NCBI GenBank assembly: GCA_973895155.1
Contig: OZ316894.1
Span: 13,246,828-13,310,827, forward strand
Length of the DNA stretch: 64,000 nucleotides
DNA from: Marsupella aquatica
Lineage: Eukaryota > Plantae > Marchantiophyta
Direction of reading: 5' to 3'
Position 1 is the stretch's first letter, and every line of letters starts with the position of its first letter. Under the pieces are notes generated by a model. That model was not told the DNA's origin. It saw only the letters and a program-made list of their open reading frames with translations, and did not search any database. Of this stretch, positions 5,666-43,309 are shown in pieces. The position numbers were made by a program, and so were the translations under genes.

Positions 5666-5680
5666 TATCACCCCCACTAA
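5666..5680 (-). promoter_or_regulatory. polypurine tract of element C
   Basis: TTAGTGGGGGTGATA on the minus strand, abutting the 3' LTR. Confidence 0.7.
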
Positions 5681-5722
5681 ACCTGTGCAGCCTCCGGTCT
5701 GCACCAACCTTATGACCCAGCT

Positions 5723-8700
5723 TCAAAAGTCCTCTACATCACTCAAATCATACACATCTTGTAAATGAAATTTCAAACGTTGTTTGAAAAGCTTAACCCT
5801 CTTGCCTGCATAAGGAACTTGATGAATTGCTCCATCTAACTCTCGAACTGTGTATGTTGTATTTGGGTGAATAGTAACAACCACAAATGGCCCTCTTCAT
5901 CTTCTCATAAACTTAGCTTTTGTCGAATGTTGTTGCTCCAACCCTCCTTCTGCAATAAGAACCCAATCTCCTTCTTTGATTTGAATAGGTCTCAATCGAT
6001 GAGTCTTATCAAATCTGACCTTATTCTTCTCTCGTGCTTGCTTCACTTTCTCCATTGCAATGTCAATCTTTTCTGGAGTTGTTTGGAAATGTTCCATCCT
6101 CCTTGCAAGTAGCTCTTCATGTGATATCTGATCTTCCCAGTCAACTGTCCTCCAACTAAAAACATTCTCCTCTAATGGCATTAAAGGTAGATGCCCACTC
6201 ACTAATTCTGCCGGTGCATATCCTGTCACCGAACTACAAGTCATTCTATCTGCTAATAGAGCTAAAGGAAGTAAGTCTGGCCATCTTGATGCCTTTCCCT
6301 TGCATGATTTGACTAAGGCATTAACAATTGGTGGATGACCTCTCTCACTCTTGCCGTTTGCTTCTGGATTGTAAGATGTAGTTAGTTTTAAGCGGATATG
6401 AAATTTCTTGAAGAATGCCTTTGCCTCTTTGCTATCTAACTCTCCACGGTCAGCTCTCATGCGCCTAAAACATCCATGTCTAGCAATGATATCTTCTAAC
6501 ACAAACCTGCATACGGCTTCAGTCTTGTTAGAAGATAATGCCCTCCCTTCCACATACGAAGATAAGTCTTCTCTAGCTAACACTAAATATTTTGCACCTC
6601 TAATCCCTGGTGGCATATGAACGATATCTATACCCCATTGAAAATGTAAAGATAGAGGATGTGTAGGGTTCAAGCCATCTCTATGTTGAATCTTTGAGTA
6701 GTATTGGCAAATCTCACAAGATCCAACATATTCTCGAACATCCACATACATTCCAGCCCACCAGTAGAATCTTCTTAACTTTTCATATGTAGCCTGAACT
6801 CCACGATGCCCTGCTGCTTCAAGATCATGTGCCTCTTGTAATACTTGAACTTTCTCTCCCTCAGTATCAAGCACTCTCAGAGGTACTTGACTCCTTGCCT
6901 TTGGACGCCTCCATAAGTATCCATCTCAAACCAAGAACTTGTAAGCCTTCTTTCGAATCTTGCTGAATTCTTCATCACTCCATCTAGTGTCTCTCTCCAA
7001 TGTACTCAAATAACGTCCTATAACTAGCAACTCTCCTGAATATAGATCTTCATAGAATAACAACTCCTTAATTTGTCCCTCAATCTCACCATGTGAACAC
7101 TCAATACTATGCTTGCCTGATTTATATCTAGCTCTTGACAACATATCAGCCACTGGATTATCTTTTCCAGTTATGTGCTTCAGTTCTGGATTAAACATTC
7201 GGATAAAAGTTATCCACCTAAGCATAGCAATGTCGGGAGTATCACAGTTTATAATCATCCCAAGTAAGGGTAAGCAATCAGTTTCTAGAATCATGTTAGC
7301 TCCTATCAAGTAATCTCTCTCTTGCCTAAGTGCTAGTTTTGCTCCCCAAAGCTCTCTCTTTATCTGCGGATACTTCCGTTGTCTTTCGTTAAAGATCTTT
7401 GCTCCAAAACGAGCAACTGTTCTATGCCCATCATCATCATCTTGTCCCAATGCCCATCCTGCTCCATATGGACTCGCATCTATTGTAAGAACTATTGGAT
7501 GTACACCATCATACTTCAATGGGCGAAGCACAGGTGGACTTAACAAAGCTTCTTTCAAGTGCTGCATTGCTTCTACATGTTCACTTTTCCATATAAATCT
7601 TACATTCTTCTTAAGCAAGCCATATAATGGATGTGAAACATGTGAAAAATGTGGTATCCATATTCTGTAGAAGATACAACCTCCTAGAAACCTTCGTACC
7701 TCTGAAGTTGTTTGACAATCCTCCATTTGGCTGATTGCTTCCACCTTCTCCTTACTTGGCTTTCTTCCATAGGGCCCACACATCTGCCCAACCACTTTGA
7801 CTTCTCTCAAGCCAAATGCTGATTTTTCTCCTGAGAGTGTAACTCCCACCTCAATCAACTTCTTTAGTATAGCCCCTACATCCTTCATGTGTTCCCAAAC
7901 AAATTGACGTATCCCATCCTTTCGAAGTGTCTCATCCTTGAGTTCTTCCAAACATCCTTTGATTGGCATATCATCAAGGAATGGTCTAGTTTTCTGTGGA
8001 ATGAAAGACTCCAAAATCTTGTTCATAGCATTTTGCATATGTGCAACAGAATTAGTAGCACCTTGTGGCAAGGTGCACATACGCAAAAGTCCAAGTGGAG
8101 TTCTCATGGTGGTGATATCCCTACTACTTTGAGAAAGTTGGAATTGATCATACCCTGAGTACAAGTCTCCAATGGAATAGATGGCCCTCCCAGCAAAGTC
8201 TTCAGCATACTCATCTACCACAGGTCCAACTCCAACATTCCGAATTGTGACTTTGTTTGGTGGCTGCATGTCTTGAATGAAACGTAGCTTCCCATTCTTC
8301 TTCTGCACTGTGAACCACCGATTGGAGTATGGTGCATCTGATCTCTCAAGTATCTTAGCATCTAACTTCTCTTTCAACAATGCTATCAATTTTGATGTTA
8401 GTGCTCTTGGAACTGAAATTGGCTTCAAATCCCATGGTATGTGTGGAACTGTAAAAATAACCATTGGTGTTACCTTCTGTGGATCCACACATCCTATCTC
8501 CTCCATAGAAAAGAAAAATGCCCTCCCATGCTCTTTGATCATCTTTTTGAATGCCTCCTTCTCGATCATGGTAAGTAGTCCATCATCACCAATTTGCAAT
8601 TGGTTCAAAGTATCTTCTGTGAATGTATGTCCAATTTTTCTTTTATCTCTCAAACTAGGCTCCTTGCTAGCACTTCTTAAAATATCTCTTGCATCAGCTG

Positions 8701-9109
8701 GTAGAGGTGTGGCTGCTGGTCTAACCTTCTTATCTATTGTCTTGTACTTTGTGTTCACCTCAACCAACTCTTCTATATGCTGATATAGCAATGGGCCTAC
8801 TTCTATCTCACCCTTTCCATCATTCAAATCTACTATAACTTGTTGCAAAGTGGGACAACAACCTTGTTCATCTAGCACACCCTCTATGTTATCACTTAAA
8901 TCCATAACACCTTGACTAACTAACATAGCCTTACTTCTTTCAATTCTCTTTTTCAATTTTCTTGATGCCTCTCTAACTTGCATATATGAAACCTCTCTAT
9001 CTCTCCCTATAGCTACAAACGAAGACGAGGAAAATCTTATGTTTGATGAGTCACTCACATTGGCATCCTGCCTGCTCACCCTCATTAACGGGATGCCAAT
9101 CAGAAATTT
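5723..9109 (-). pseudogene. pol: element C pol (RT, RNase H, integrase) with two in-frame stops
   Basis: RWFTVQKKNGKLRFIQDMQPPN, GDLYSGYDQF, LPQGATNS, FLDD, ETDCLPLLGM, H..AGH..C..C, GIDIVHMP, YNPEANGKSER. TGA at 6926-6928 (FLV*DGYLWRR) and at 5897-5899 (RR*RGPF), all in one frame. Natural stop at 5723-5725. Confidence 0.92.
9060..9109 (-). promoter_or_regulatory. putative -1 programmed ribosomal frameshift signal (A AAU UUC followed by a stem-loop)
   Basis: Slippery heptamer AAATTTC (9109-9103) immediately before the gag TGA. Downstream TTGGCATCC...GGATGCCAA forms a perfect 9-bp stem. pol is open in the -1 frame across the site. Confidence 0.75.
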
Positions 9110-11340
9110 TCTTGGTCCTTCATCTCTTCACTTGCTCTCAGCTCCTTCCTATTTCTCACATGATCCGGGCGAACTGTTGGAAATTGGATAACACGAAGAT
9201 TATCCTTACTCTTGACTTTGGCCATATGAGTGCCATCATCAAGAACCTTAGTCTCTAGTCTCCATTCTGTAATGAAAGGTTGTCCTAGAAGAAGTGGATA
9301 AGGTAAGGAATCATGAACAAAGACATTGATGTCTTCAAGCACATTTCCTACCTTAAGCTTCACATCAGGACAAGCTCCCCACAAAGAATTGTGATTTGCA
9401 TTCACTGATTTCACCTTCCATTGGATGTCTCGATCCACCTTCCACCTTCCTTGGTTGTAGAGCTCTCTTGACATTAGATTCACCTCTGATCCTGAATCAA
9501 TAAGTGCCTTGATAGGACCTTTGACTCCAATCAGCTCCACCTCAACTTCATCACAAGCTCTTGCCCAATATGACTCCATTTCTTTTATAGATTTAGCATG
9601 ATAGGAATCTAGCTCAACTTTGTTGTCTTCAACTTGTACTGCACAAATGCTCACGCTCTTAGTTTCTCCTTCATTGTCTGAATCCTCCATCTCCCCAGCT
9701 AGAGCATGAGGACCCTCTTTGTAAAAACGTTTCTTCTTTGATCTTGTAAGAATTGCTTCTTGTATGTCTTTCCTCAAACTCCCAAAGAACTCCTCATTTG
9801 TAAAACCATGGGCTTCTTGCTTCCAAAACTTATCAACAATTCTCTCTGGTTCAATTGTTTGTTCCACATCACGGCCTAGTATCCACCCAGGTCCCTTTTT
9901 GGTTGACTTCTCATTCTTCTTCTCTTCCTCCATTGGTGAATCTGAAGTTTCTCTTCTTGGCATCTTTCCTCTTGGCTCATCACTTGAAGGAGTTTTGCGC
10001 TTGTCCTCCACTCTTGCTTCCCATGTAGCTCCAACTTCTGCAGTAATTGGGGCTATTAACACAGGAGCATCCCATCCAGTTTGTTGACGAATGTAGTCAG
10101 CAAGCTTTTTCTTTCCTGTCTCATCAAGTACCTTTTCTGAAAAACAACTTGTTGCAGCAAAAACATTAGGCTCGATTACAGTTGCTGCTGTGTCTACTCC
10201 TTCTGTTGCCAAATTTTTCTCCACTAAGGCTCTCATCCCTCCACGATTATTGTTGAGTGGTATAAGTTCCTCAATGTTGTAGTATGCAAGCTTCTTTTGT
10301 CCTTGCTCACCAACAAACTTCACAAGTCGATTTCGAAGTGCTGCAGAAAGTTCAGTGCAATCATTTCTTCTATGCTCCTTGCTGTCACACCACATGCAAT
10401 TCCATGTGCGATTTGTTGTTGTTGTAGTCTTGGTTGCTTGCGTCTGGTTTAGAACTTGGGTTGTAAGAATGGTCAAGTTCCTCATCAAATCAGCAAGCTC
10501 TTCAACTGCTCCTCCTTTGCCTTCTTGTGCTGTGGACTTGATCTCCTTCTTCTCACCCCCACTAGTAGTGTTATCCATCCTTGTAGTGATTGACGTCTTG
10601 GTTTGACTTGGAACTCCACTAATAGCCTCTTGATCCAAGTCTCTTCTTCTATGTCGATGACTTACCTTCATCACTGCCTTCTCAATGTTCTCCCAATTTG
10701 TAGAAGAGTCAGTACGATCTGGATCAATTAGATCCAAAGCATTCTCCAACTTATCCCTTAGCTTCTCATCTGCAGCTCTAAGAAATAGAGTACACCTCTG
10801 CATCCGGATGACTTGTGCCTCTGAATCTGGAAGTTGATTGAACTTCTTGTTGAACTCTCGCAATAGTTCTTGTGGCCCCAATTTCTTGTTCCTCTCATGG
10901 ACCCAATCACAAAATGTCACTTGTGTAATTCGATCAGCATCCTCCAATTGGAATTCCTCCTTCATGCATTTCTCAAAACACCTCCATGTCTTGTCTTTTG
11001 ATGCCTCAAGAACTATAGCATCAACGATCCCTTTTAATTCTAGCTCCACCAATGTTGAAAATTGACGAATTGCAACCTCTTTTGAAAGTTGCTCAATAGT
11101 AGCCTCTTGCCAATAGGTCTTCATGTAATGAGTTACATTACGACCATCAAATTGCCCATTCTTCTCAAGAACCTTCCTCAAGCACCTTGTTGCACAATGT
11201 GCTTGCTCTCTCTTTTGATTTTCTGCTGTATCGGTTTGTTTCATACTCTGCATCAAAGTTAACAACATTCTAGACATGGTATCCATGTCCATAGTGTTGG
11301 GGGACATACTTGAGTCTCCCATGTCAGTACTGTTAGGCAT
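9100..11340 (-). CDS. gag: element C gag-protease polyprotein (746 aa)
   Basis: Intact ORF with FDGRNVTHY, zinc knuckle CMWCDSKEHRRNDC and aspartic protease ALIDSGSEVNLM...LLLGQPF. Confidence 0.9.
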   Translation of the reverse strand: MPNSTDMGDSSMSPNTMDMDTMSRMLLTLMQSMKQTDTAENQKREQAHCATRCLRKVLEKNGQFDGRNVTHYMKTYWQEATIEQLSKEVAIRQFSTLVELELKGIVDAIVLEASKDKTWRCFEKCMKEEFQLEDADRITQVTFCDWVHERNKKLGPQELLREFNKKFNQLPDSEAQVIRMQRCTLFLRAADEKLRDKLENALDLIDPDRTDSSTNWENIEKAVMKVSHRHRRRDLDQEAISGVPSQTKTSITTRMDNTTSGGEKKEIKSTAQEGKGGAVEELADLMRNLTILTTQVLNQTQATKTTTTTNRTWNCMWCDSKEHRRNDCTELSAALRNRLVKFVGEQGQKKLAYYNIEELIPLNNNRGGMRALVEKNLATEGVDTAATVIEPNVFAATSCFSEKVLDETGKKKLADYIRQQTGWDAPVLIAPITAEVGATWEARVEDKRKTPSSDEPRGKMPRRETSDSPMEEEKKNEKSTKKGPGWILGRDVEQTIEPERIVDKFWKQEAHGFTNEEFFGSLRKDIQEAILTRSKKKRFYKEGPHALAGEMEDSDNEGETKSVSICAVQVEDNKVELDSYHAKSIKEMESYWARACDEVEVELIGVKGPIKALIDSGSEVNLMSRELYNQGRWKVDRDIQWKVKSVNANHNSLWGACPDVKLKVGNVLEDINVFVHDSLPYPLLLGQPFITEWRLETKVLDDGTHMAKVKSKDNLRVIQFPTVRPDHVRNRKELRASEEMKDQENF

Positions 11341-11486
11341 TGCTATATATCAACTTGTTTACTCTCTCGCAATGAATAGGCGCCCACCACCTAGGTGTCC
11401 CTAGACCAATTGTCTAGTAAAGCAAGTTAGCCTCTTCTAGTAATGCAATACTTCCTTTTTTTCTTCCAAAAATAGGCCCCAAGAGT

Positions 11487-11504
11487 TCCCCAGTATGATC
11501 GCCA
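11487..11504 (-). promoter_or_regulatory. primer binding site of element C (tRNA-Arg-like)
   Basis: TGGCGATCATACTGGGGA, 4 nt after the 5' LTR end. It resembles the TGGCGAC...CTGGGGA Arg-type PBS. Confidence 0.75.
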
Positions 11505-11508
11505 CTTA

Positions 11509-12901
11509 TGTCGGGGGAATCTTTAGTTCTTGGGAAGCACCGAGCTCTTGTTTTTCCTATCTTGGAAGAAACCTTTCCAAAATACGTCTTTTCTCACCTC
11601 ACATTACCCTTGCGATTCCCTTTGTCGATCAATTTCTCTCACCGTTATCCTCTAAAATATCTCTCACAGCCTTTGTCTCACTCTACGATGAGCGGCTTCC
11701 TCACACTAAGCCTCGAATCGGCCTATCCTCTTTCCACATAACTTACTTCCCAAGTCAAGTCATAGATTGCAATTTCCAACGAATCCTACAATTAGATAAG
11801 TCAATTATAGAAAACAAAGACTATGATCTTAAGATTTACCATAGATGATATAATCACAGGCTCTGGCATCCTAAGCATAACATTGTATCTTTAATCTCCA
11901 TATTTTCTAACTAAAACATCTCTACAATCAACCTTCTTACGGCATACCACTCTAATGTCAATAGATGAAGGAAAATCAGACACATTATTAGGAGGCCTAT
12001 TCAAATCTAACTCCGGTACATTTATGGATTGTCTATTAAAATCCATCTAATATAAAATAAAAATAGTTACATTCCATTCATTTCCATAAACAACAATCGG
12101 GTATACAAATGGTGCATCGCTATTCATAACTGTTTCCATTAACTCAAACCCAAAATGATAAAAAAAATGCATTCTCATGGTATGCTTGCTAAGACAATGA
12201 ATTCTAATTAAGAAAGGATTGACAAATGACACAGCAGGTGGGGGATAAACTCTAGGTACTCCATTTATCATATTATTCATTACAAGCACACTAAATTGAT
12301 CTCAAGACTAATAAACATAAAACATAAAATAGTTCTAAGGCTAACAATCAAGTTAGTACCCAAGCATGGAGGTAAATAATAAACAAGACACGTGCACAAG
12401 AGAGGAAGAGTTCCTTACAATATTGCGAGTCCAACACAATAGATCAAACAAATGCGAATGAGGAGAGTGTGCTCCTCTTCACTTTATTTATAGTGCCCCT
12501 TTGTGTTTTCCAAGAGGGCATGGATCGATGCCTTGACCCTTGGATGGAAGCCAAGTGGCAAGCATCAAGCACCTATAAGTGTGCTAGTACTATTCATGGT
12601 TGGTGGAACTACCGTGCGTAGTTGGTGGAATTATTACGCGTAATTGGTGAAACTACTATGCGTAATTGGTGCAACTACTATGCGTAGTTGGTGGAATTAC
12701 TATGCATCTAGTTTGTAAAACTACTATGCGTAAATGGTGGAACTACTGTGCATGTACCATTGTAAAATGTACATACTACATATAGAATGTAACATATATG
12801 CTCTAATAGTACTACTAAGAAGCTTTTAAGTAAAACTCTCTTCACATAAACTCAAATAACATAATATGGATTCTTGCTTTCTAAAAGGAATCCCCACGAC
12901 A
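11509..12901 (-). repeat. 5' LTR of element C (1393 bp)
   Basis: TGTCG...CGACA termini; direct repeat of 4185-5665, shorter by four 22-bp units. Confidence 0.95.
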
Positions 12902-14920
12902 ACGCGCGTCAACATACTCGGCTGCGGGGAAGGAGTATGTCCCTCACGGAAGAATGGCTCAGGATGATCTTTGGGTTACCCGAAGGTGACCATCGAGTCG
13001 AATCACGGGCTCCCGGGGGCAAGGGAGCCAAGTACCAATCTTCAAGTTTTCCCTCAGAGGGAGCAGTGGACAACGGGTTTGTGATGAAGACCTGCCTCAT
13101 CCCCGAGATAGCTGAGCGACTGGAGTTCCAGAGGTACACCCTCCACATGATGGAACCCCGGGGGGAGATCTCTGCCGCCCAGGTTATCCAGGTCGAGAAC
13201 TATCGACCTAGGAGGTGGGCGTCGTACTTCGCTAAGAAATTCCATGAAGAGATGGAGCGGCGAAGGAAGACGCTGTACATTGGCGGGAAGGCGTATTTCG
13301 CTAGCCACATCGAGATCATTCTTGAGTGGTATGCCCGATTTGATCGACAAACCCTTCCCCGTGTCAACGTTACAAAGCTGGTCCCAGCTAGGTGGGTTTT
13401 CTCGGCCTTGGAGAGACGGCCCCAACCCGAGGCCCGAAGTCCGGCGGACACGCCAGCTTCACCCACCCCACCTCCACAAGTAGCTGTAGTCGTAACCGAG
13501 GAGGTACCGGATGGGTCGGGTGTCGCAACCGTTGATGCGACCCAACAGGCCGGGCTAAGTACAGAAGTCGGTATGGCGGAGGTCTTACCCGAGCTCGGTT
13601 CTCCCAAAGACCCACCGGTGGCTATTCCGGAGAACCGGACATTGCTACAGGAGGACACTCCAGCCCCTTCCAACATTACGTCCCCAGGGCTGGATGTCAC
13701 TGCCCCGGCCCCCGCGCATGTTGACGTCTGCCCGTGCCCAACTCCGGATAGGCACAACCTGGACCACCCGGAACTCTTCGTACCGGGTACATTTCTGAAC
13801 GGGCTTCTGGGAGATTTCTCTCATCAGATTGCCCGGGATACCGGGGAGTTCATGGCCCGGAAGGTAGCCTGTTTCTTCAATCAGGAGTTGGTTGCCGCAG
13901 TAAAGGTAGGACGGGCCCAGTCAGAGGCCCTTCAGAGGATAGAGCGGTACCGGGTGGAGTCCGTGTACCTAAAGAACGAAGTTGTGGCTCAAGAGGCTGA
14001 GCTTCGGCAACTACGACCCAAGATTGCAGCCGCCGATGAGTTGTTAGCAAAGGCGCACGCTCTTACCACCCTAGCCGAACAGGCCAAAGCTGGGAACGAG
14101 GCCGAGATTACACGACTCCGGAACCAGATTGACAGTTTGAAGAATCAAACTGTCACCTGGCAGAAAGACCTGGAGGAGGCCGAGGAACGGGCCCAACGGG
14201 ACACGGCGGAGATAGCCATGCTGCAGGCCGAGGTGGCGCGGCTCCAAACCGAGGCCGAGAAGCAGGACCAGCTGGCGGGTAAACTGACAAGTGATGCCCA
14301 GCAGTTGGAGGAGGCTTGTCAGGAGGCAACAGAGGAGACGGACGCGGCGAGGCGAGAGAACGAATCTCTGCTGGACCAAGTCCAGCTCCTCAAGGCGGAC
14401 AATGACAAGCTTCGAAGGCAGCGGGATGGCCGCTCCCATTCAGGCGGCTCTGGCAAGCGTGCCAGGCATTAGCGGTGGAGTAGGAATAGATTAGGATTAG
14501 GACTAGCTTAGTCAGGCTCTTGGGACAGGCACCTGCCTTCGGTACAACATTGCTGCCATGCTGTGACGCCGCCGGTATGGCGGTTAATGAGTGATTCGGT
14601 CTAACTGCGCTTGGCACGCGCGTTAGGAGTATCTTAGACCGCTATTATTAGTATAACGACAGTATTTAGGTAATCATTATGGGTAGGATATCATTAGGCA
14701 ATAAGGGGGAATTCAGGTTCGGACTGGCGGTTGGTCGCTATTCGCACACCCGGGTTACGAGCGTGGAGGGGCCCCTCCCTCGGGTCCGTATAACAAACTT
14801 AAGGAAGCGGCCACTGAGACGTGCTGACTCAGACTGGCGGAGTGGCCGGCACACCACAAGCGTGAGCGGTTCAGCCTATGGGCGTCGAGGAGACGTCGTG
14901 GGATCGACAAGCCCTCAAGG

Positions 14921-14927
14921 TATAAAA
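14921..14927 (+). promoter_or_regulatory. TATA box upstream of the LTR-encoded ORF
   Basis: TATAAAA(GG) about 108 nt before the ATG, conserved in the copies at 3007 and 47432. Confidence 0.65.
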
Positions 14928-15028
14928 GGGGAGCCAACCCTTTGTAGTGCACCAGTCCATCAATCCACGCGCCAGCTTCGACCCCAGCTCTGTCGTTCGC
15001 TCTAAGTCGCCACTACTATCTCCTCTGA

Positions 15029-17665
15029 ATGTCGCACACGATCCTCTCCAGCCCGGCCATTCGATTCTGGACGCAGTTCCTATCTACCGGAAGGCACTTG
15101 GCCGACTCATTGAAACACGCCAACCCGCGCCGATAGGAAATCGAACGTGAGTACGAGAGAGCCATCCGCCTAGCAGGACGACACCACTACATCCTTAACT
15201 TTGACTACCCGTCTCAGAGCGAGCTTTACCAACCTGCAGAGGTATCCGGGTACTTCTTCAACGGAGACAAATATATCGGGTTCTGGGAAGCATTGCTTCG
15301 GCTTCCGGACGAGGTCTTCAATATCCCGGGTACGATCGACTTGCAGCGACATCACTTCGACCACATCCCTGCTCAGGTTCGGGCTATCATCAACAGCGAG
15401 TCCAGCACTACCCGTTCGACAAGGTCGTCTGCACTCGCTTCGGAGAACTTCTACCAACACCTACAGAGTTTCATAGGAACTCGGCCAGCAACCAACATGA
15501 CCAACTCAATCGTACCCGTACCCGTACCCATACAACCTCAGGCTCAGCTTCAGCTTCAGCCTCAGCCGCAGCCTAGCCAAACCCCACCACCGATCGCCCA
15601 GCCAGCACAAGTACGCTCCATCATCAATGCTGTGGATATTAGCGATGACGACGAGGCTACTCTACCCTTGACCAGGCGGCCAAGAGGAGCAAGCGCTCAG
15701 GGGGCCGACACTATATCGTCCCCACCCCCTGCTCTGACCCCAGGAGCGGCCCCGACAGACAACATGGTGACCGTGGCCGACCCGGGCCCGTTACTAACGG
15801 CAGTGGCACTACCCAGGCCCGGTCGGGAGGATGGGGAGGTATCACCTTCCCCGAGCCAGTCACGGGGGAAGAAGAGGAAGGAATCCGCCACTGCATCCGG
15901 GTTACCGTTGCCCACGGTAGCCGTGGCCAAGGTGACGATGCACCGCATGGGGGAAAACGTTCACAAAAACATCCTCCATCCCAAGCATGCGGTGTACCTG
16001 AAGACTCAGGGATTCAAGCACCTCGCCTCCCTCCCCTGGAACACTTGCAGGTACTACGAGGAGGACATGACGGAGTTCGTGAGGAATTATGACGACGCGC
16101 GTCAACATACTCGGCTGCGGGGAAGGAGTATGTCCCTCATGGAAGAACGGCTTAGGATGATCTTCGGGTTACCCGAAGGTGACCATCGAGTCGAATCACG
16201 GGCTCCCGGGGGCAAGGGAGCCAAGTACCAATCTTCAAGTTTTCCCTCAGAGGGAGCAGTGGACAACGGGTTCGTGATGAAGACCTGCCTCATCCCCGAG
16301 ATAGCTGAGCGACTGGAGTTCCAGAGGTACGCCCTCCACATGATGGAACCCCGGGGGGAGATCTCCGCCGCCCAGGTTATCCAGGTCGAGAACTATCGAC
16401 CTAGGAGGTGGGCGTCGTACTTTGCTAAGAAATTCCATGAAGAGATGGAGCGGCGAAGGAAGACGCTGTACATTGGCGGGAAGGCGTATTTCGCTAGCCA
16501 CATCGAGATCATTCTTGAGTGGTACGCCCGGTTTGATCGACAAACCCTTCCCCGTGTCAACGTTACAAAGCTGGTCCCAGCTAGGTGGGTTTTCCCGGCC
16601 TTGGAGAGGCGGCCCCAACCCGAGGCCCGAAGTCCGGCGGACACGCCAGTTTCACCCACCCCACCTCCACAAGTAGCTGTAGTCGTAACCGAGGAGGTAC
16701 CGGATGGGTCGGGTGTCGCAACCGTTGATGCGACCCAACAGGCCGGGCTAAGTACAGAAGTCAGTACGGCGGAGGTCTTACCCAAACCCGGTTCTCCCAA
16801 AGACCCACCGGTGGCTATCCCGGAGAACCGGACATTGCTACAGGAGGACGCTCCAGCCCCTTCCAATGTTACGTCCCCAGGGCTGGACGTCACTGCCCCG
16901 GCCCCCGCGCGTGTTGACGTCTGCCCGTGCCCAACTCCGGACAGGCACAACTTGGACCACCCGGAACTTTTCGTACCGGGTACATTTCTGAACGGGCTTC
17001 TGGGAGATTTCTCTCATCAGATTGCCCGGGATACCGGGGAGTTCATGGCCCGGAAGGTAGCCTGTTTCTTCAATCAGGAGTTGGTTGCCGCAGTAAAGGT
17101 AGGACGGGCCCAGTCAGAGGCCCTTCAGAGGATAGAGCGGTACCGGGTGGAGTCCGTGTACCTAAAGAACGAAGTTGCGGCTCAAGAGGCTGAGCTTCAG
17201 CAACTACGATCCAAGGTTGCAGCCGCCGATGAGTTGTTAGCAAAGGCGCACGCTCTTACCGCCCTAGCCGAACAGGCCAAAGCTGGGAACGAGGCCGAGA
17301 TTACACGACTCCGGAACCAGATTGACAGTTTGAAGAATCAAACTGTCACCTGGCAGAAAGACCTGGAGGAGGCCGAGGAACGGGCCCAACGGGACACGGC
17401 GGAGATAGCCACGCTGCAGGCCGAGGTGGCGCGGCTCCAAACCAAGGCCGAGAAGCAGGACCAGCTGGCGGGTAAACTGACAAGTGACGCCCAGCAGTTG
17501 GAGGAGGCTTGTCAGGAGGCAGGAGAGGAGACGAACGCGGCGAGGCGAGAGAACAAATCTCTGCTGGACCAGATCCAGCTCCTCAAGGCGGAAAATGACA
17601 GGCTTCGAAGGCAGCGGGATGGCCGCTCCCATTCAGGCGGCTCTGGCAAGCGTGCCAGGCATTAG
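15029..17665 (+). CDS. LTR-encoded ~878-aa protein: N-terminal domain, Pro/Gln-rich linker, conserved central domain, C-terminal coiled coil, basic KRARH tail; one in-frame TAG at 15134
   Basis: The 790-aa ORF 15293-17665 extends in frame to ATG 15029. TAG at codon 36 is TAC (Tyr) in the other copies. The central segment EFVRNYDD..RLRGRSMSL..LRMIFGLPEG resembles plant gypsy accessory-ORF domains by eye. Confidence 0.85.
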
Positions 17666-17879
17666 CGGCGGAGTAGGAATAGATTAGGATTAGGACTAGC
17701 TTAGTCAGGTTCTTGGGACAGGCACCTGCCTTCGGTACAGCATTGCTGCCATGCTGTCCAGCCTGCGTAGATTAGGATCTTCTAATAAGACACAGCCATT
17801 TCCGGCCTGACTGTCAGCTTAGTTATGACCTTAGTCAGTGAATCTTCGGTGAGAGGACACCCCGTCCCTCGTCCCTTAG

Positions 17880-17886
17880 TATTTAG
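17880..17886 (+). promoter_or_regulatory. putative main LTR TATA-like box (TATTTAG), downstream of the LTR ORF
   Basis: Precedes the conserved CCCC(T)CGGTAGAGGCA-GGGGG block. The related ORF-less LTR has GTATATAG at the equivalent position (minus strand, near 56007-56014). Confidence 0.5.
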
Positions 17887-19371
17887 TGCACCCCTCGGTA
17901 GAGGCAAGGGGGGGTTTTTAGTTGCAGAGTTGGGCGTCCGCGGTAGATGCGGGGAGTCCCGACCTCTGGGAATGAAAGAGTACCAAGGGGAGGGGGTAGG
18001 ACTAAGCTCGCCGGGCGAGTGCGGAGCCGGGCTCCGTTGTAGTGTGCACCCTCGGCCTTGAACCTGTTCATTTCGGGGCTGTCGGGTCAACTAAGTGTAC
18101 GCGTATGTTCCCTTTGTAGTAAAATCCTTTCCCATCATTTTCCTTCGTGTAAATCGAGATTGTATGCATGTGCGCGTGTATGTGTGTGGGTTTCTCGTAT
18201 ATGGGTGGCAGCGCCAGGCCAAACGCACTACCTGAGACATGCACAGGGTGCAGCCTACGGGTAAGTGGTTGCGAGCACGGGTTGAGGACCTGTATCATCG
18301 AATCCGGATCGAAGGCGGATAGCACGAAGGCTTAGAAGCCCTTAAGCCGGGGTCGATCCTGCTATCAACTAAGGTACGTTCCGACAGCGGAACACAAACC
18401 ATACCTAGGAGGTGTCCGTATTTAGCAGTATGCGCACTTAGCGCTAGTTTACGAGAGTAAGGTGCATTACGTGCTTCCCTTCCTGCCCGAACCCTCAGAT
18501 TTACGAGGGATGTGCCCGTCTAAGCTGAAATCTGAGTTAAGGCCGCAGCCGATGACGTGACACATGCTGTCCAGCCTGCGTAGATTAGGATCTTCTAATA
18601 AGACACAGCCGTTTCCGGCCTGACTGTCAGCTTAGTTAAGACCTTAGTCAATGAATCTTCGGCGAGAGGACACCCCGTCCCTCGGCCCTTAGTATTTAGT
18701 GCACCCCTCGGTAGAGGGGGGGGGTTTTAGTTGCAGAGTTGGGCGTCCGCGGTATGTGTGGGGAGTCCCGACCTCTGGGAATGAAAGAGTACCAAGGGGA
18801 GGGGGTAGGACTAAGCTCGTCGGGCGAGTGCGGAGCCGGGCTCCGTTGTAGTGTGCACCCTCGGCCTTGAACCTGTTCATTCCGGGGCTGTCGGGTCAAC
18901 TAAGTGTACGCATATGTTCCCTTTGTAGTAAAATCCTTTCCCATCATTTTCCTTTGTGTAAATCGAGATTGTATGCATGTGCACGTGTATGTGTGTGGGT
19001 TTCTCGTATATGGGTGGCAGTGCCAGGCCGAACGCACTACCCGAGACGTGCACAGGGTGCAGCCTGTGGGTAAGTGGTTGCGAGCACGGGTTGAGGACCT
19101 GTATCATCAAATCCGGATCGAAGGCGGATAGCACGAAGGCTTAGAAGCCCTTAAGCCGGGGTCGATCCTGCTATCGACTAAGGTAAGTTCCGGCGGCGGA
19201 ACACAAACCATACCTAGGAGGTGTCCGTATTTAGCAGTATGTGCACTTAGCGCTAGTTTACGAGAATAAGGTGCATTACGTGCTTCCCTTCCTGCCCGAA
19301 CCCTCAGATTTACGAGGGATGTGCCCGTCTAAGCTGAAGTCTGAGTTAAGGCCGCAGCCGATGACATGACA

Positions 19372-20952
19372 AGAAGCCCACTTCCTAGGCCGGTAGTCTT
19401 GGGCAACGGATATCTTGCCCCTTGGCTCCATCAATTGGAGGGCGTACCTCTGGAACTCCAGCCACTCCGCTATCTTCAGGATAAGGCATGTCCTCATCAA
19501 GAATCCATTGTCCACTCCTTCTTTGGCCGGGAAGCTAGAGGATTGATACTTGGCTCCCTTGCCCTCGGGAGCCCGTGATTCCACCCGATTTACTCCTTCG
19601 GGTAGGCCAAAGAACATCTTGGGCCGTGCCTTGCTGAGGGACATCACTCTTCCATGCGCACGGGTTTGTTGGCGGGCCTCATCAAAGTTCTGGATGAACT
19701 TCGTCATATCCTGCCCATAGTACCTGCTAGCATTCCAAGGGAGAGAGGCGAGGTGCTCAAACCCTTGGGTCTTTAGGTAGCATGCATGCTTGGGGTGGAG
19801 AATGTTCTTGTGAACATTCTCCCCCATGCAATGCATGGTCAGCTTGGCCACCAATACTGTGGCCAAAGGCAGCCCGAATACAGCCGCGGGTTCCTTTCTC
19901 TTCCTACCCTGAGACTGGTTCTCGGGGTGCCTTGTAGAGGGGGACATCTCCCCGTCCTCTCTATCGGGCGGCAGCAGCGCTACCACCGTAAGTACTGGTG
20001 CTGGGGCCGCCACTGTCACCGTGTCGTCTACCAGAGCTGTCACTCAAGTCCAGGCTTGTGCGGGTGGTGACGTGTTGCCTGGCTCGTGTGTGCTTGCCCC
20101 TTGAGGTCGCCGGTGCAGGGGAGGGTGAGCCTCTTTGTCCTTGGAACTAATGTTCACCATGTTCACCACGGATCGTACCCGGAGGGGTGGTGCAACCGGT
20201 GGTGGAGATCGGCTTGGCTAAGGCCAAGGTGGTGTTGATGAGGGCACCAATGAATTGGCAACGGTTGTAGCTGGACGAGGCGCCATAAGATTCATCAAGT
20301 CTGAGGGGAAGCCAAATAAGGTCAGGAAGGATGTCTCACCCGTATTTGCATTACCAAACTAATAGTCTATGGAAGCCTGAACTTTGGCGGGGATATGGTC
20401 AAAGTGGTGTTGCTGCAAGTCTATTGTGCCCGGGAGTGTGAAGACCTTGTCCGGAAGCCAAAGGAGCGCTTCCTGGAAGCCGACATAGTTTGGACCATTG
20501 AAGAAGTATTTGCAGATCTTGTCGGCTTGACAAAGCTTGCTCTAGAACGGGAGGTTGAAATCACCATTATAGTGAGAGCGCTCGGCTAGGCGGATGATTC
20601 GTTTGTATTGCCTTTCGGTTTTGTACCGGCGCGGGTTGACTTTGGCCAACGACTTCGCTAAATGATTTCCGATGGATAGAAATTGAAGCCAAAATTGAAG
20701 GGCCAAACTAGACATAATCGTGACAGACGGACCCGGGGGGCATCTTACACGCTTATAATCCGGTGGTACGAATGGCACTCCGCCGCCAGCCCGAGCGTAA
20801 ATGCTCCTTATTGACTAATGATGTCCTAGTCGTGATTACTACCTACTTTAGTGTCGTTATGCTAATAACTATGGACTACTATGTCCATAGTGCGCGTGCT
20901 AAGCATGGATTAGACCGAATCACTCATTAACCGCCGTGCTGGCGGCGTCACA
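19372..20952 (-). repeat. 3' LTR of B (part) with the N-terminal half of the LTR ORF
   Basis: Begins TGTGACGCC at 20952 after the PPT. Encodes ..QFWLQFLSIGNHLAKS.. and ..KNILHPKHACYLKTQGFEHLASLPWN.. A deletion near 20725 removes the TATA/ATG segment seen in the 47-kb copy. Confidence 0.85.
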
Positions 20953-23900
20953 TAGCTCCCTACTTAAGTGTGAAGCATCCTCGTGAACATTGCTATTGGT
21001 GGTATGGTCTTGATGATGGTACTTCTTCACACCATCATAACAAACTCGCGTCGGAAGTAAATCACCGGTGTACATTGCAAGCTTGATGGAGGCGTTTGGG
21101 TAAATTTGATTGACAAGGAAAGGTCCTAGCCAGCAAGTATGCAACTTCTTGGGAAATTGCATGTACCTGTTATCGTACAGAAGGACCAGGTCGCCTGTTA
21201 TGATGTCAATCTTCCGTAGTCCTTTGTCGTGCTACTTCTTGGAAATTGCCTGTTGCTTCACTGCGTGTCGGGCAACTAGTACCCGGGCTTCTTCTAATGC
21301 TTCAATCTGGTAAGCTCTGCCCAAAGAACTATCGGCCTCAAATAAGCAATCCTGAATACTTGCCTGTGGGTTGTGAATTTCAAACTTGACCGGAACCAAT
21401 GAGTGTTGCCCGAACACGAGAAAGTACGGACTATGACTGGTAGTAGTCTTGTAAGCCAAATTGTATGAGTACACAATGGCGTATAATTTGTCATCCCAAT
21501 CTGTTTTGTGCGCGGCTACTGTTTTGTTGAGGATCTTCCCAATGATGCCATTCGCCCTCTCCGTTAGTTCGTTGGCTTTTGGATGGTATGGGGTGGTCTT
21601 GCGGTGCTTGACCAGGTACCGTTCCGTAAGGCGCTCTACGGTTTCATTGATGAAATGCGTTCCCCGATTGTTGACTAACTCCAAAGGTGGCCCAAAGCGA
21701 GTTAAGATTTGCTCATACAAGAACCTGGCGCTGGTAGCGGCATCATCCTTCACCATAGCCCGAGCTTCCACCCATTTGGTGGAGTGGTCTATGGCTAGTA
21801 GGATGTACCTACACCTGCGTCTTTGGGTAACCAGAGTGAAGGGCCCAATGTAATCAATGGCCCACTTCTCAAATGGTGCTAGTGGAAGTACGGAGGTGAG
21901 TGGGTGATTGTGGGCTTTCCTTGGGGCGCCAGCCCGTTGACATAAATCGCACCCTTTATTAAAGCGTTGCACATCCCGATGTAACGTAGGCCACCAATAC
22001 CCCAAATCCAAGATCTTACGAGCAGTAGTGATGGCCGCAAAATGGCCTCCAGCTTCCTCTTTGTGTCCGGCTCGCATAACGATGAGCATTTCCTTGTATT
22101 CTAGGCAGCGCCGTAGCTTCCCATTAACTCCCTCTTTGTGTAAGTGGCCTTGTATCATCACATACGGTCCAGCCTTACGTAAGAACACGGCGGCGGCCTC
22201 CTGATTGATTCCATCGGGGATGCAGCCCGTTAGGAGGAAGGTAATAAGCGGTCCGTACCACGTGGGTGTACCTGCCCCTACGTGGAATAATTCCTCATCT
22301 GGAAAGGTATCGTTAATAGACTGATCTACGGGTACGCCGTCTAGTCTTGAAAAGAAATTGGTGTTGAGGTGTGCCTTCCCCGACCAAACCTGTACCTTGT
22401 AGTTAAACTCCTATAAGAGCAATACCCACCTGGCTATCCATCCCATGACATCTGCTTTGTTCACCATATACTTTAAACTATCATGATCCGTATGAAAGAT
22501 GACTTTATATCCAAGCAGGTAGTGTCAAAACTTCTTACACAAGTAGATAATGCCTAGAGCTTCTTGATCGGTGGGGGAATAATTCTTCTCGGTCATAAAT
22601 AGCTAACGGCTAGCAAAATAGATGGGGTGGTTGCAACCGTCCTTGTCCAGTTGGCTTAGTATGGACCCGATGCAAAACCCCAAAACGTTGACGTACACAT
22701 GGAATTCCTTATTCCAATCTGGGGTTACCATGATAGGTGCCGTGATGAGTCGGCGCCAAAGTTCTTCAAAAGCTATATGTCCCCGGGGTGTCTCTTCAAT
22801 CACTGCATCCTTCTTCATCATCTCCGTTAGGGGTAACGTAATTTTAGCAAAATCTTTGATGAATCGACGATAGTACCCTATGCAACCCAAGAATGACCGT
22901 ACTGCTTTGTGATCCACGGGGAATACTACCGCCATCCAGGCCACAACCTTCTCTTGGTCTACCTCGATACCCCGTTTGGACACACGATGCTCGAGTAACA
23001 CCCCTTCCTCTACTTTGAAAAAACATTTAGTCGGATGCAACTTTAAATTTACTTCTCTGCATTGTTGTAGCGTACGACGTAAATGTTTGGGGTGCATGGC
23101 GATGGTTCCAAAGATGGCAAAGTCATCAATAAATATTTCCAGGAATTCCCGTAGAAAGTCATGGAAGATATTCATCATGAGTCTCTGGAACATGGCCGGC
23201 GTTACACAGTCCAAATGGCATTCTGCAAAATGCAAACGTCCCCCACTCCATAGTGAACGTTGTTTTAAGCTGATCTGAGAGTCCGATCCAGATTCAATTG
23301 TAGCCCGAATACCCATCGAGGAATGTATAGATTTCATTACAGGCTACCATATCCAGAACCATATCCATGAATGGTAACGGGTAGTGATCCTTCCGGGTGG
23401 CGTCATTTAGTTTACGATAGTCCTGGCATATGCAAATTTTGGGCTTCCCATCCGTACCTCCCTTCTTTGGCACAATGACAATGTGAGACACCCAATCACT
23501 GGCCATTAATTACCGGGTAGATGATATCCGTGGCCAGAAGATGATCAATCTCCTCCTTCACCAAAATGGAGTACCTTGGGTTCATGCAGCGTTGCCGCCG
23601 CCGTACGGCGTGAGCTCCTAAGTTTAAATTGATCGTGTGTTCTCCCAACTCGGGGGAGACTCCAGTCAAATCATGATGGCACCATATCTTCATACTCCTT
23701 AAGCAGTGCTTGGATGGATTTTTCCGCATCCCCCTTCAGAGCATGGCCTAAGTTGAAAGACTTATCCATCCCAATGGTGTACTTCCGGTAGTGTTCCTTC
23801 CTTATGACCTCCACTTGATTACGCAAGTTAGGGTCTAGACTTGCATCTAGCTTGGCTAACCAAACCCCTCCGTACATTGGTGGCGTCAGGATTGGCTTCG

Positions 23901-24777
23901 GAATTGGGGTTGCTTCCTCTTGTAGCAGGATGGATGGATCCTAGGAGACTCGTTTCTTATGCTTTGGCCTTGGGGTTTCAGCCTCGGGCAATGCTTTGGT
24001 AGGTTCCCGGTCAGTAGGGTCAGCATCGGTAGAGGAAGCATCAGCTCCCTGCTTAGATGGAGCCGTATCCTCCGTATCCTCCGAGTTGATGGCTTGCACT
24101 TGCTGTTCATCCACCGGAATGCTAGAGAAGCTCGGGGTGGTCCCGCCTATAACGACCTTTGGGTAATTCAGGAGATGCGTCTCCCGAGTTGCCTCTATTC
24201 CAAAAACATCTTCCTTAGAAAGGGATGAGATGAGCTCAATCATATTGAGCTCTTCTTCCTCCAAGGTCTCTGAATCATACTCCTTGGGTCCCTGTGGAGT
24301 CTCGCCCTGATAATTGTCCATCGCCCAGGATGCTCGTACCATGGGTGTCCCAAATCGTAGTTCCTTCTTTCCCCAGTTTGTGACTACGCGGCCACCGTAC
24401 AGCCACGGCCTTCCCAATAGGACCGGGTAAGAAGATGGTCGGACCGGCCTCATGACCAAAAAGTTTAGATAAAACTCCACACCTCCTACAAGGGTGAGAA
24501 CCTCGGTGAGCGTGCCCAGGGGGAGTACTCTTGCACCATTTGCTAATCAAATAGCTTGGGTTGTGGGTTGATACATGAGGTACCCCAATTTTATAGATGT
24601 TTCCTTAGTCATAATATTGACTCCCACTCCGCCGTCCATGAGAACCATCTTGATGGTACAGCCCTTGATCTCAATCGAGATGTCCGGTGCCCCCAGGTCT
24701 TCGCAGATCATATTACAATCCACAACACCAACACGTGGTAGCCGTCTTCTCTGTCGGCCCGTGAGCAACTCTCTCAA
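20920..24777 (-). pseudogene. pol: element B protease-RT-RNaseH-integrase, fragmented
   Basis: VLMDGGVGVNIM protease, ICQDYRKLN, FIDD, AIDYIGP, KANELTER, spread over several frames with stops. Confidence 0.9.
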
Positions 24778-24899
24778 TTGTTGCCGGTATTGGGGATTAT
24801 TCTGGAGTAGTTATCCTACTGTCGCTGTGACTGGGCAACTCTTCACATCTTGCCAAATATTGTATTCCTCCTTCTTTTCTTCCTTTGGCTGTTGCTTTG

Positions 24900-26812
24900 C
24901 TTTCGCTTCCCGCTTCTCCTGCTCTTCTCGTTGAGCGGCCTCAGTTGCTTTTAGGTCTTTATCGATCGCTTTCTAGTACTCTCATGCTTCGTATGCTTCC
25001 AACTGTTGCTTTACCAACTCTTTGATGCGGGGATAGAATAGCTTTGGGTCATCCCAACGGTAGTCGTCGTCCTCCTCCGAGGGTATTTCTATCGTTGGCT
25101 GCACTGGCATGGTATCTTGCTTCCGTCAATGTTTCTCTTCCTGTTTCTCTTGCTTTTGTTCGGATCTGGTTGACACTTGGTAACATTTGGCCTCATTTGA
25201 CGGATTGGGGTGTTTCGTTACATCAACCAGGTTGACCCACTCGGTGGTATCATCTTGCCATTCTACGGTGATCATTTGAACGACTGCATCGCTTGGAGCT
25301 GGTCCACTTGGGGCCGGCCTAGCCGCGCTTGCTCGTGCGGCTATCACCAATGGGCAATTAGCTGTGGAATGAGCCTCCGTTTTGCAAACTTGACACAGTG
25401 GCATGCCTCGGCCATCTCCTTGCCGTTTTTGTTCAGTGCATTCCCTTGCAAAGTGACTGGGCTTCTCACAGTTGTAACAAACTGGGGATCGCCAAATCCC
25501 TGGCTTAGGAGGAATGCTCAAGTTACTTATAACTTGGAAGCCTCTACCACGATTTGGGTATGGATATGCAGTTATGCCAGCCAAATTTCAAGGACCCACC
25601 GTAGAAATCTGATACACGGAGTCAGGGGGTTCTTTGAAGAAGTACTTCGTGGACTCCGGTTCTGGCCCCGGGCTGTCGACATCATCCAATTCCACTTGAT
25701 GGACTCGATGCTTCCATCTTGGGCATTCTTGCACCGCATGGCCCGATTGGAAGCACTTGGAGGACCAAGCATGCGCTCGGGTTTTGGATGGCTTCTTCTT
25801 CTCCACAGGCTTCTCCGCAAGATGTACCAACAATGCCTTGAGATGATCAGTGATTTCATTGAGTTTGTCTGTTCGGCAGCCTTGGGATCTGGTACCATTC
25901 TTTGAACGCGGGGCTTGACTTTCTCCTCCTTAGCGCACCATTTCTTCTTCTTGCTTCGGGCCTTGCTCTCCAAATCACTACCCAATGAGCTTGAGGTGGA
26001 GGAGCCACTAGTTGAAGTGAAATCTGAACTAGATCCCGTCTCTGAACTGGACGAGGTCAAATGATGTTTCTTCTTCTTCTTGCGCTTCTTCTTCGTCTTG
26101 TTGTCTGATTCGGAGTCAGTGTGACTGAAGGTCTGGTACTTGCTCTTCTTTTGTCATGCCCATTGGCTTTGTCGGGAGTTATAGGTGGACTCCCTGTATG
26201 TTTTGACGCACGCAATGGCTGCCTACATTGAAATTGGGTTATTTTGGCGTACCCAAAATTGCATATCCGTTGGCAATCCATGTAGAAACCACGTAAGCTG
26301 GAGCGCATCGCCTAGCTTGGGCCAGATCTTGGTAGTGAGTTTTTGGAACTTCTGAATGAATTTTTGCAAGAACTCCTTCTTCCCCATGCAAAGTTGACCA
26401 ATCTTCAACAAGGAACGCTGCTCCGCTCCAATGGCACAAAACTCTTGTAACAACGCGGCTTGGAATTGTGGCCATGTGATTATGGGCTGCAACAAGTTGT
26501 ACCATGGACGAGCTTCTCCTCGTATTACTCAGAGAGAATTGTCAACTTAATGGTGTCCTCTCTGTTGGCCTTAGCAGTGGCTTCAAACTCATCCAACCAT
26601 TCATCCGGATCGTCCCCATGACGTCCCTTGAAAGGTCGGTAATGAAACCGTGATTGCTGTGATACTTGTGGGGGAGCTTGGGCCGCACAAGCCACAGCCG
26701 GAGGGGCTGCTGCCATGGGTACTGGTGGCGGAGGTGGCGCTGGCAGTGGTGCACCAAGGGCCGGACCAGGATCTGCTGGACCGGATCTTGAAGGTCTTGG
26801 TGGTATGTTCAT
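24900..26812 (-). pseudogene. gag: element B gag, fragmented
   Basis: FKGRHGDDPDEWLDEFE, ITWPQFQAALLQEF, WFLHGL, and zinc knuckles CFQSGHAVQEC, CYNCEKPSHFAREC, CQVCKTEAHSTANC. Confidence 0.85.
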
Positions 26813-27031
26813 CCGTCAAGGCGATTGTGAGTCCTCCAAGTCTGAAGATTTGGAACTTGTTGTGGTTGCACTCTCTCATTCGCTTATCAATCTCCTTAAG
26901 TAAGCCGCTTGAGAACGAGTGACAGGCATCTACTCTTATAAATGTAATGGTTAGCAACTATTTGGGGCCCAAGGTCCTGTGATCAGGTACATACGCACAT
27001 GTCTCTATTAGACTACTATACTTAGAATGCC

Positions 27032-27048
27032 CCCTCCATCTAGCGCCA
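27032..27048 (-). promoter_or_regulatory. putative PBS of element B
   Basis: TGGCGCTAGATGGAGGG, similar to the TGGCGCTAGAAGGAGG motif of Tat-type elements, 13 nt downstream of the LTR end. Confidence 0.65.
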
Positions 27049-27061
27049 AAAACAAAGGCTA

Positions 27062-43300: not shown

Positions 43301-43309
43301 CCTCCCCGG

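Follow-up and report, generated by a model that had tools for sequence, protein, structure and literature searches.

A protein gene can be carried in the terminal repeat of a retroelement: MMTV sag and HIV nef are retroviral open reading frames (ORFs) that lie in U3 or overlap it. In plants, long terminal repeats (LTRs) of great length and extra ORFs are each known (PMC6317226; PMC7264820; PMC11963269; PMC1142308). The LTRs of Ogre (over 5 kb), BAGY-1 (4.2 kb) and Diaspora (2.5 kb) are examples, but the parts of PMC1142308 and PMC6317226 that describe them report no long ORF inside. (The 550-codon ORF of Ogre is described as lying between the LTR and gag.) Here we describe an LTR, from a high-copy gypsy family of the liverwort Marsupella aquatica, that is 4001 bp long, which is within this range, and that contains an 878-codon gene, broken in the copy at hand. 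It lies in a stretch of 64,000 nucleotides of contig OZ316894.1, which we call the window and number from its first letter. The core of the encoded protein is predicted to fold like VANC21, an anti-silencing protein. The gene is unrelated to the much shorter sag and nef; here the LTR also has an apparent TATA box upstream of the ORF and would thus hold its own promoter for the gene. In the literature we searched, which did not cover most subscription journals, we found no plant LTR reported to hold a whole gene and no retrotransposon ORF reported to have a VANC-like fold. The liverwort gypsy lineages in the available part of PMC12885004 are described without a gene-in-LTR layout.

VANC21 is encoded by VANDAL21, an Arabidopsis Mutator-like DNA transposon (DUF1985; PDB 9lnj and 9lnk). 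It is reported to recognise a 9-base motif and to demethylate its family (PMC5735166); within its own element it is described as binding a short motif and removing methylation (PMC5735166; PMC10398659). The targets of VANC are arranged in tandem arrays. VANC itself is described as dicot-specific and derived from MAIN (PMC13547354). Plant mobile domain proteins (PF10536), which include the host proteins MAIN and MAIL, share a fold family with our ORF through VANC. Their PMD-A clades are described as gypsy-encoded (PMC5418596), and MAIL1/MAIN are reported to act through promoter motifs against H3K27me3/Polycomb (10.1101/2024.09.27.615353). Among retrotransposons, the counterpart is the sense extra ORF at the 3' side of Athila; the domain Transposase_32 (PF20167, related to Athila ORF1, PF03078) is reported from one such ORF (PMC11728184).

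The LTR that we studied stands alone, nested within the 3' LTR of a sister copy, element A:

14562..18562, plus strand: solo LTR, 4001 bp, TG...CA, inserted within the element A 3' LTR
14557..14561, plus strand: left target-site duplication (TSD), 5 bp, CATGC, from the boundary read-out
18563..18567, plus strand: right TSD, 5 bp, CATGC, from the boundary read-out
14921..14929, plus strand: TATA-like box, 359 bp from the LTR start and 108 bp upstream of the ATG; putative promoter
15029..17665, plus strand: 878-codon accessory ORF, broken, wholly inside the solo LTR
17666..18562, plus strand: 3' non-coding portion of the LTR, 897 bp, 74% identity with that of element B
17985..17998, plus strand: purine tract, conserved in element B, with no TG after it

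As a first-pass annotation of the window had claimed, the 4001-bp unit has the ends of an LTR (TGTGAC from 14562 and GTGACA ending at 18562) and a perfect 5-bp duplication, CATGC, on both sides; such a duplication has a chance of about 1e-3. The solo LTR is 95-97% identical to the element A LTR. Because it differs from its host LTR by 3-5% and has its own TSD, it is a separate copy and not an echo of the assembly. Without its two nested insertions, the host LTR measures 1537 + 1660 + 804 = 4001 bp, which is exactly the length of the solo LTR.

The window holds further copies of the family, whose boundaries can be compared:

1..2680, plus strand: element A pol, with a reverse transcriptase (RT), an RNase H (RH) and an integrase (INT) and without an additional RNase H between RH and INT; the polypurine tract ends at 2647
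2648..19371, plus strand: 3' LTR of element A, divided into 2648-4184, 12902-14561 and 18568-19371; ORF broken
19373..20952, minus strand: element B 3' LTR, 5' part only, with ORF codons 2-463, broken; adjoins its own polypurine tract
20953..27061, minus strand: element B internal region, gag from about 26930, pol decayed; the primer-binding site is about 14 bp past the LTR end
27062..28361, minus strand: 5' LTR of element B, of which just the 3' part is present; it holds ORF codons 745-878
47071..49790, plus strand: copy D, with the LTR start after non-element DNA, a TATA box and ORF codons 1-766 (broken); its 3' side is cut

A self-comparison of the window shows that the element A 3' LTR is split by the solo LTR and by another element, C. 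Element B belongs to a subfamily that is 70-75% identical to the solo/A type. The boundary read-outs agree with the first-pass annotation on where the LTR starts: it begins at the identical base in A (TGTGAC at 2648) and in B (20952, minus strand), in both cases directly after a polypurine tract, and in D (47071) after unrelated DNA. The annotation had also placed the KRARH C-terminus of the protein upstream of the primer-binding site and gag in the 5' LTR of B. Indeed, the ORF's last ~134 codons, with KRARH among them, lie within 28361-27062 (minus strand); the LTR 3' part comes next, and then the primer-binding site and gag.

The LTR of this gypsy family is 4.0 kb long. This follows from the matching starts after polypurine tracts, the shared LTR end before the primer-binding site (in element B), the TSD of the solo LTR, and the pieces of A that sum to 4001 bp. 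No element in the window keeps two complete LTRs (the 5' and 3' fragments of B do not overlap, and the 5' end of A lies outside), so we infer the presence of the ORF in both LTRs from these boundaries rather than from any one element. Public runs over 18380-18680 give a further view of the LTR end. Among the loose ends listed, those past 18562 open with element B's leader (the sequence after its 5' LTR) in two of the four runs, and in one of these two the leader continues to where the primer site begins; the flank in a third run is unrelated. None of the 32 pieces listed, from more than 1000, spans the 18562/18563 junction, which is uninformative either way.

Does the LTR hold a whole gene? 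The frame at 15029-17665 lies wholly inside it, as had been claimed, but in the solo copy it is broken by a single premature stop at codon 36 (15134-15136). An open stretch of 842 codons follows, with a chance of ~6e-14. Codon 36 is a sense codon in the other three window copies that cover it; those copies carry other stops or frameshifts. The ratio of nonsynonymous to synonymous changes (dN/dS) between the solo ORF and its relatives is low (0.20 against B's 3' LTR, 0.17 against D and 0.20 against B's 5' LTR), and it is 0.12-0.14 for the core of the protein between subfamilies; shifted-frame controls gave 0.70-1.50. The excess of third-position changes is also strong between solo and D (p = 6e-21). 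The comparison with the young sister A gives a dN/dS of 0.45, and there the third-position excess falls short of significance (p = 0.10). Given the low dN/dS between subfamilies and the intact 906-aa homologue described below, the ORF is, to judge from its substitutions, a real gene under purifying selection between subfamilies. The TATA box (TATAAAAGG) is 108 bp from the ATG in solo, A and D alike.

A search with the core domain found 41 homologues at E <= 0.001 among 1.84 billion representatives. We looked up ten core homologues, and the five that were named are all from Calypogeia fissa. (The best named matches to pol are from Calypogeia fissa and Riccia sorocarpa.) One homologue, P0043, is intact. 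It has 906 aa, aligns with the ORF from end to end at 29% identity, and has its parts in the same order: N-terminal domain, linker, basic motif, core, linker, coiled coil and a KRAR tail. Other searches found nothing: a word-index protein search with the core (0 of 1512 candidates of 463-1474 aa; the cluster representative P0003 is shorter than this range), a metagenome scan with the homologue P0055 (0 of 74 candidates), and a search of proteins of 1587-4530 aa with the family alignment (0 of 6812), which is weak evidence against a fusion to gag-pol. Decayed core homologues also lie at the right ends (minus strand) of three loci, L047, L048 and L054, in AT-rich plant DNA of another kind; they are on the strand opposite to the integrase match and ~10 kb from it. 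These matches suggest that the family may reach beyond one host group.

The protein can be divided as follows:

15029..15406, plus strand: N-terminal helical domain, aa 1-126, conserved in six homologues
15863..15880, plus strand: basic motif RGKKRK, immediately ahead of the core; candidate nuclear localisation signal
15929..16612, plus strand: core domain, ~aa 301-528, net basic, predicted VANC21-like fold
16949..17608, plus strand: C-terminal coiled coil, ~aa 641-860, then a basic tail ending in KRARH; weak Pfam coiled-coil matches

Fold searches with the protein, which the first-pass annotation had proposed as a check, gave a single clear match for the core, and it was VANC21. The core model has a pLDDT of 89.6 and was built from 45 sequences. 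In Foldseek, its top match is VANC21 bound to DNA (9lnj_A, E = 3.5e-3, probability 1.00, TM 0.48), and the runner-up has E = 4.1. In VIA-align, across 48,161 solved chains, the best match is again VANC21 with DNA (9lnk_A, Z = 8.2, rmsd 4.1, 208 residues), and the runner-up has Z = 2.1. VANC21 is the only protein above Z = 5 there, and its structures score Z = 8.1-8.2 with rmsd 4.1-4.2 over 207-208 aligned residues. A Z of 8 is by itself at the edge of the commonplace, and the advised criteria are the gap to the next row and near-full coverage; because the gap is large and the coverage is near-full, we consider the match credible. The core has 41 lysines and arginines versus 27 acidic residues, and its conserved columns include the basic residues R391, R428, R442, K467 and R477. 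In P0043, RKRK takes the position of RGKKRK. The N-terminal domain (pLDDT 83.7 from 7 rows) had no Foldseek match; its best VIA-align score was Z = 5.5, to generic helical hairpins, and its Atlas matches are unnamed. At the sequence level, Pfam gave weak coiled-coil matches only on the ORF, and PDB sequence searches returned coiled-coil noise only.

Links to the other families are indirect. In Atlas, DUF1985 and the plant mobile domain appeared at 0.84, as sub-threshold leads only. The core profile matches ORFs after pol in two metagenome relatives (4e-10 for L007 and 2e-5 for L001). A profile built from five such post-pol ORFs matches the core profile at 96.6%, but two of the five, L001 and L007, were already matched by the core profile. 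The L007 ORF in turn matches Transposase_32 at E = 2.5e-4, with 21 bits against a curated cut-off of 45. In direct comparisons with Transposase_32 the ORF has no match and 1 of the 45 aligned members reaches E = 0.059. Thus the suggested check against Transposase_32 and plant mobile domain profiles gave no direct Pfam match, only the transitive link through L007. Taken together, these links, individually weak yet concordant, place the gene in a broad fold group with Athila ORFs, plant mobile domains and VANC.

How does the ORF compare with its counterparts? Like VANC21, it is transposon-encoded, has a coiled coil, and has a conserved core (of the same predicted fold) amid variable regions. Unlike VANC21, which is carried by a VANDAL Mutator-like transposon, it is carried by a gypsy LTR retrotransposon in a bryophyte. 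It also lacks a Pfam match to DUF1985, has no tandem motif arrays that we could find, and has an additional N-terminal domain without a clear solved relative. Like the Athila extra ORF, it lies downstream of pol on the sense strand, and it has the transitive profile link; its basic motif resembles the RGGKRKL signal predicted for sunflower Athila 14 (PMC11728184). For the Athila domain as for VANC21, oligomerisation via coiled coils is predicted (PMC13547354). In contrast to the Athila ORF, this one is inside the LTR, hence at both ends of the element and in solo LTRs, and it has no direct Pfam match and no transmembrane helix.

The element as a whole also shares features with Athila as characterised in the available part of PMC6317226. 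It has a 5-bp target duplication, and its pol lacks an additional RNase H (Pfam finds RT, one RH and INT only); the departure is that the extra ORF is inside the LTR and not internal after pol. That source gives the Athila primer as tRNA-Asp, -Asn or -Ala. It describes Phygy by a 4-bp NCGN duplication, a tRNA-Trp primer and no extra ORF, and our family differs. Tat lineages without an additional RNase H are also reported (PMC10508981). We found no extra domain between protease and RT in the three frames of the decayed copy B. There is no tRNA gene in the 64-kb window, and Rfam has no match in 14400-28500. The primer-binding site itself starts with TGGCGC, which may fit tRNA-Asn.

Athila elements have two polypurine tracts. 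We examined the layouts of eight of the closest loci (L001-L008) among the best 80 of 473 integrase loci. L001 (1-10852) is a collapsed circular contig with one whole related element and an open pol. Its order is pol, a degenerate purine tract, a 745-codon ORF, a canonical tract, a 1-kb LTR, the primer site and gag, so its ORF is in the internal region and not in the LTR. In L007, purine tracts with TG flank the ORF on both sides. Thus the homologous ORF precedes a canonical tract in two relatives, and in one of them a 1-kb LTR and the primer site come next. In L002, L003 and L005, the canonical tract and TG come right after pol and the ORF lies beyond, as in the window family (the far ends are off the contig); L002 and L005 also have a TATA box between tract and ORF. 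L004 has a tract and TG after pol, and its end is beyond the contig view. The purine tract of L006 and of L008 lacks a TG. (After pol, L006 also has a long ORF region at 2204-5098, with one stop and then 812 codons that include a coiled coil, and a weak match to the core-profile set.) The canonical motif before the LTR of the window family is closely like the one after the ORF in L001.

The simplest reading of these layouts is that the plus-strand primer was shifted across the gene, which would have lengthened the LTR from ~1 kb to 4 kb. The gene would originally have been the family's 3' extra ORF, and the primer, which sets the left edge of the LTR, would have moved to the pol-proximal side of it. 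Both the non-coding tail of 897 bp and the 17985 purine tract would then be relics; the tract (17985-17998) might be what is left of a second polypurine tract. A change in the opposite direction is also conceivable. In an integrase tree (27 rows, with no reference set), A and B group beside L002, L003 and L005 at 81/78 support, and the window rows are apart from the single angiosperm row. Because this support is modest and the deep nodes are open, the direction of the boundary shift is not established.

We then considered what the protein does. The reading that we favour, at about even chances, is that the LTR carries a nuclear, sequence-specific DNA-binding factor that counteracts silencing of its own family. 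In this model, any intact LTR, whether 5', 3' or solo, would yield an mRNA driven by the TATA box 108 bp upstream of the ATG. The protein would enter the nucleus through its basic motifs, oligomerise through its C-terminal coiled coil, and bind short motifs in family DNA. Once bound, it would locally remove or block silencing marks, in cis and in trans. The annotation's proposal of a nuclear accessory protein, for instance an anti-silencing one, gains substantive support from the predicted fold match to VANC21 and from the transitive Transposase_32 link. Its proposal that each solo LTR is an expression cassette would hold only for intact copies: this one carries the stop at codon 36, and its decay is of the methylation type.

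The composition of the DNA bears on this reading in both directions. The ratio of observed to expected CpG is 0.88-0.99 in the solo LTR and the pol of A versus 0.37 in element C and 0.56-0.59 in the flanks. Among the relatives, it is 0.90-1.06 in L002, L003 and L005 versus 0.30-0.77 in L001, L004, L006, L007 and L008. That family DNA retains CpG weakly favours protection from silencing. The contrast is not independent support, because the relatives that share the layout are kin and because of L009, which has high CpG without a match to the core.

That exception is one of several observations that weigh against the favoured reading. Between solo and A, transitions affect 9-14% of CG, 5-8% of CHG and 1-3% of CHH sites, and from this CG- and CHG-biased decay the window copies evidently were methylated. 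None of the five ORF copies in the window is whole, each being either broken or cut. We saw no clear tandem array of target motifs in the non-coding LTR, only a weak repeat of 2-5 copies at 17670-17704 and one more at 18297, and the top 6-mer (7 copies versus 5 at the 95th percentile of the null) is marginal after five word lengths and three regions. The core is only 10-12% identical to VANC21, neither the ORF nor any of the 45 aligned members has a Pfam match to DUF1985 or the plant mobile domain (within the top-25 list), and a VANC21-like fold alone shows no function. Host MAIN and MAIL proteins of the same fold family are described as promoting transposon silencing or opposing Polycomb (10.1101/2024.09.27.615353; PMC5418596). 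Lastly, the nodes of the integrase tree that would give the layout change its direction are open.

Other functions would also account for some of these data. The protein might regulate transcription from the LTR promoter without changing methylation, as a trans-activator or a copy-number repressor, or it might be a Polycomb antagonist like MAIL/MAIN, which belong to the same fold family and are reported to act at promoter motifs against H3K27me3 (10.1101/2024.09.27.615353). The CG and CHG decay fits this, in that methylation did occur, but decay in dead copies says nothing about active ones, and Polycomb antagonism is itself a form of anti-silencing; we consider this alternative unlikely, though worth keeping in mind. 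Less probable still is that the protein binds DNA or chromatin to tether the integration complex, guiding it to family LTRs or to a type of chromatin. The integrase ends at the LTR with no Pfam match to a chromodomain, and both readable family insertions in the window are within family LTRs: solo is in A, and the right end of A adjoins the cut 3' LTR of B (at 19371-19373, within B's ORF), so that A appears to have inserted into a sister-subfamily LTR in the opposite orientation, making two self-nested insertions. But these are just two cases, the TSD of A is uncheckable, family LTR DNA makes up ~14 of the 64 kb (chance nesting is plausible), and the sole solved structural relative is an anti-silencing protein. 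The former reading of Athila 3' ORFs, as an env-like or movement protein, seems to us the least credible. The transitive homology to Transposase_32, which is reported in an Athila 3' extra ORF (PMC11728184), would connect the ORF to it, yet we found no transmembrane segment (the best 19-residue Kyte-Doolittle means are 0.95 for the solo ORF, 1.26 for P0043 and 0.88 for P0055) and no BFVD viral fold at E <= 0.001, and the basic motifs are at conserved places.

A different kind of alternative is that the LTR proper is confined to the last 0.6-0.9 kb. The ORF would then be a 3' extra ORF of the usual internal kind, and the 4-kb unit would be due to mis-assembly or to an aberrant insertion. L001 has that very layout, the purine tract at 17985 survives in both subfamilies, and the window offers neither an element with two full LTRs nor, among the pieces listed, a contig across 18562/18563. 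Nevertheless we judge this to be very improbable. The 17985 tract has no TG after it, whereas a canonical pre-LTR motif with TG precedes the ORF in A and B and matches the motif that follows the ORF in L001. The 4-kb unit has its own TSD and differs from its host LTR by 3-5%; D begins at the same base after unrelated DNA; and ORF sequence lies upstream of the primer site in the 5' LTR of B.

The window also contains several features outside this family. Element C (~4185-12901, minus strand), which is inserted in the element A LTR, is an AT-rich, unrelated gypsy element with long open gag and pol frames. Its LTRs are ~1.4-1.5 kb and 97.9% alike across 1.24 kb, and its apparent 4-bp ACGC duplication has the NCGN pattern reported for Phygy (PMC6317226). 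A pair of repeats that are 78% identical is at 28366-28627 and 43307-43569, and the first of them truncates the 5' LTR of B. Copy D ends at a CACTA-like terminus, from 49789 on. There is a Plant_tran (PF04827) frame at 30285-30875 and a Copia-type gag-protease fragment with a Pol_BBD match at 57980-58579 (minus strand). Within B itself, a branch-point-like word followed by AG lies at 26930-26960 (minus strand), immediately 5' of the gag ATG, and could be a splice acceptor that bypasses the long LTR leader. We did not find such a word before gag in three relatives (L001, L003 and L010), so a spliced gag mRNA stays a guess.

A 4-kb coding LTR strains the usual picture of gag translation and of the length of strong-stop DNA. 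It also places the gene where recombination between LTRs, by the host, cannot delete it. The function of extra ORFs in plant retrotransposons is described as a long-standing open question (PMC7264820; PMC6317226), and the predicted VANC-like DNA-binding core would be a structural lead on it that is directly testable in a liverwort model. A bolder proposal, which we hold only tentatively and think doubtful as a whole, is that a bryophyte gypsy element moved an anti-silencing gene with the VANC fold into its LTR. Solo LTRs would then be working cassettes of promoter and gene that keep the family unsilenced in trans, and the fold shared by VANC, plant mobile domains and Athila ORFs would be an ancient accessory domain of retrotransposons that long predates the VANDAL transposons of dicots. 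If so, solo-LTR formation, by which hosts purge retrotransposons over millions of years, would leave the cassettes behind. Should the anti-silencing function itself hold, sequence-specific escape from silencing would no longer be confined to DNA transposons but would include retrotransposons and land plants that diverged early, and it would have to be re-examined who borrowed from whom among MAIN, VANC and gypsy ORFs.

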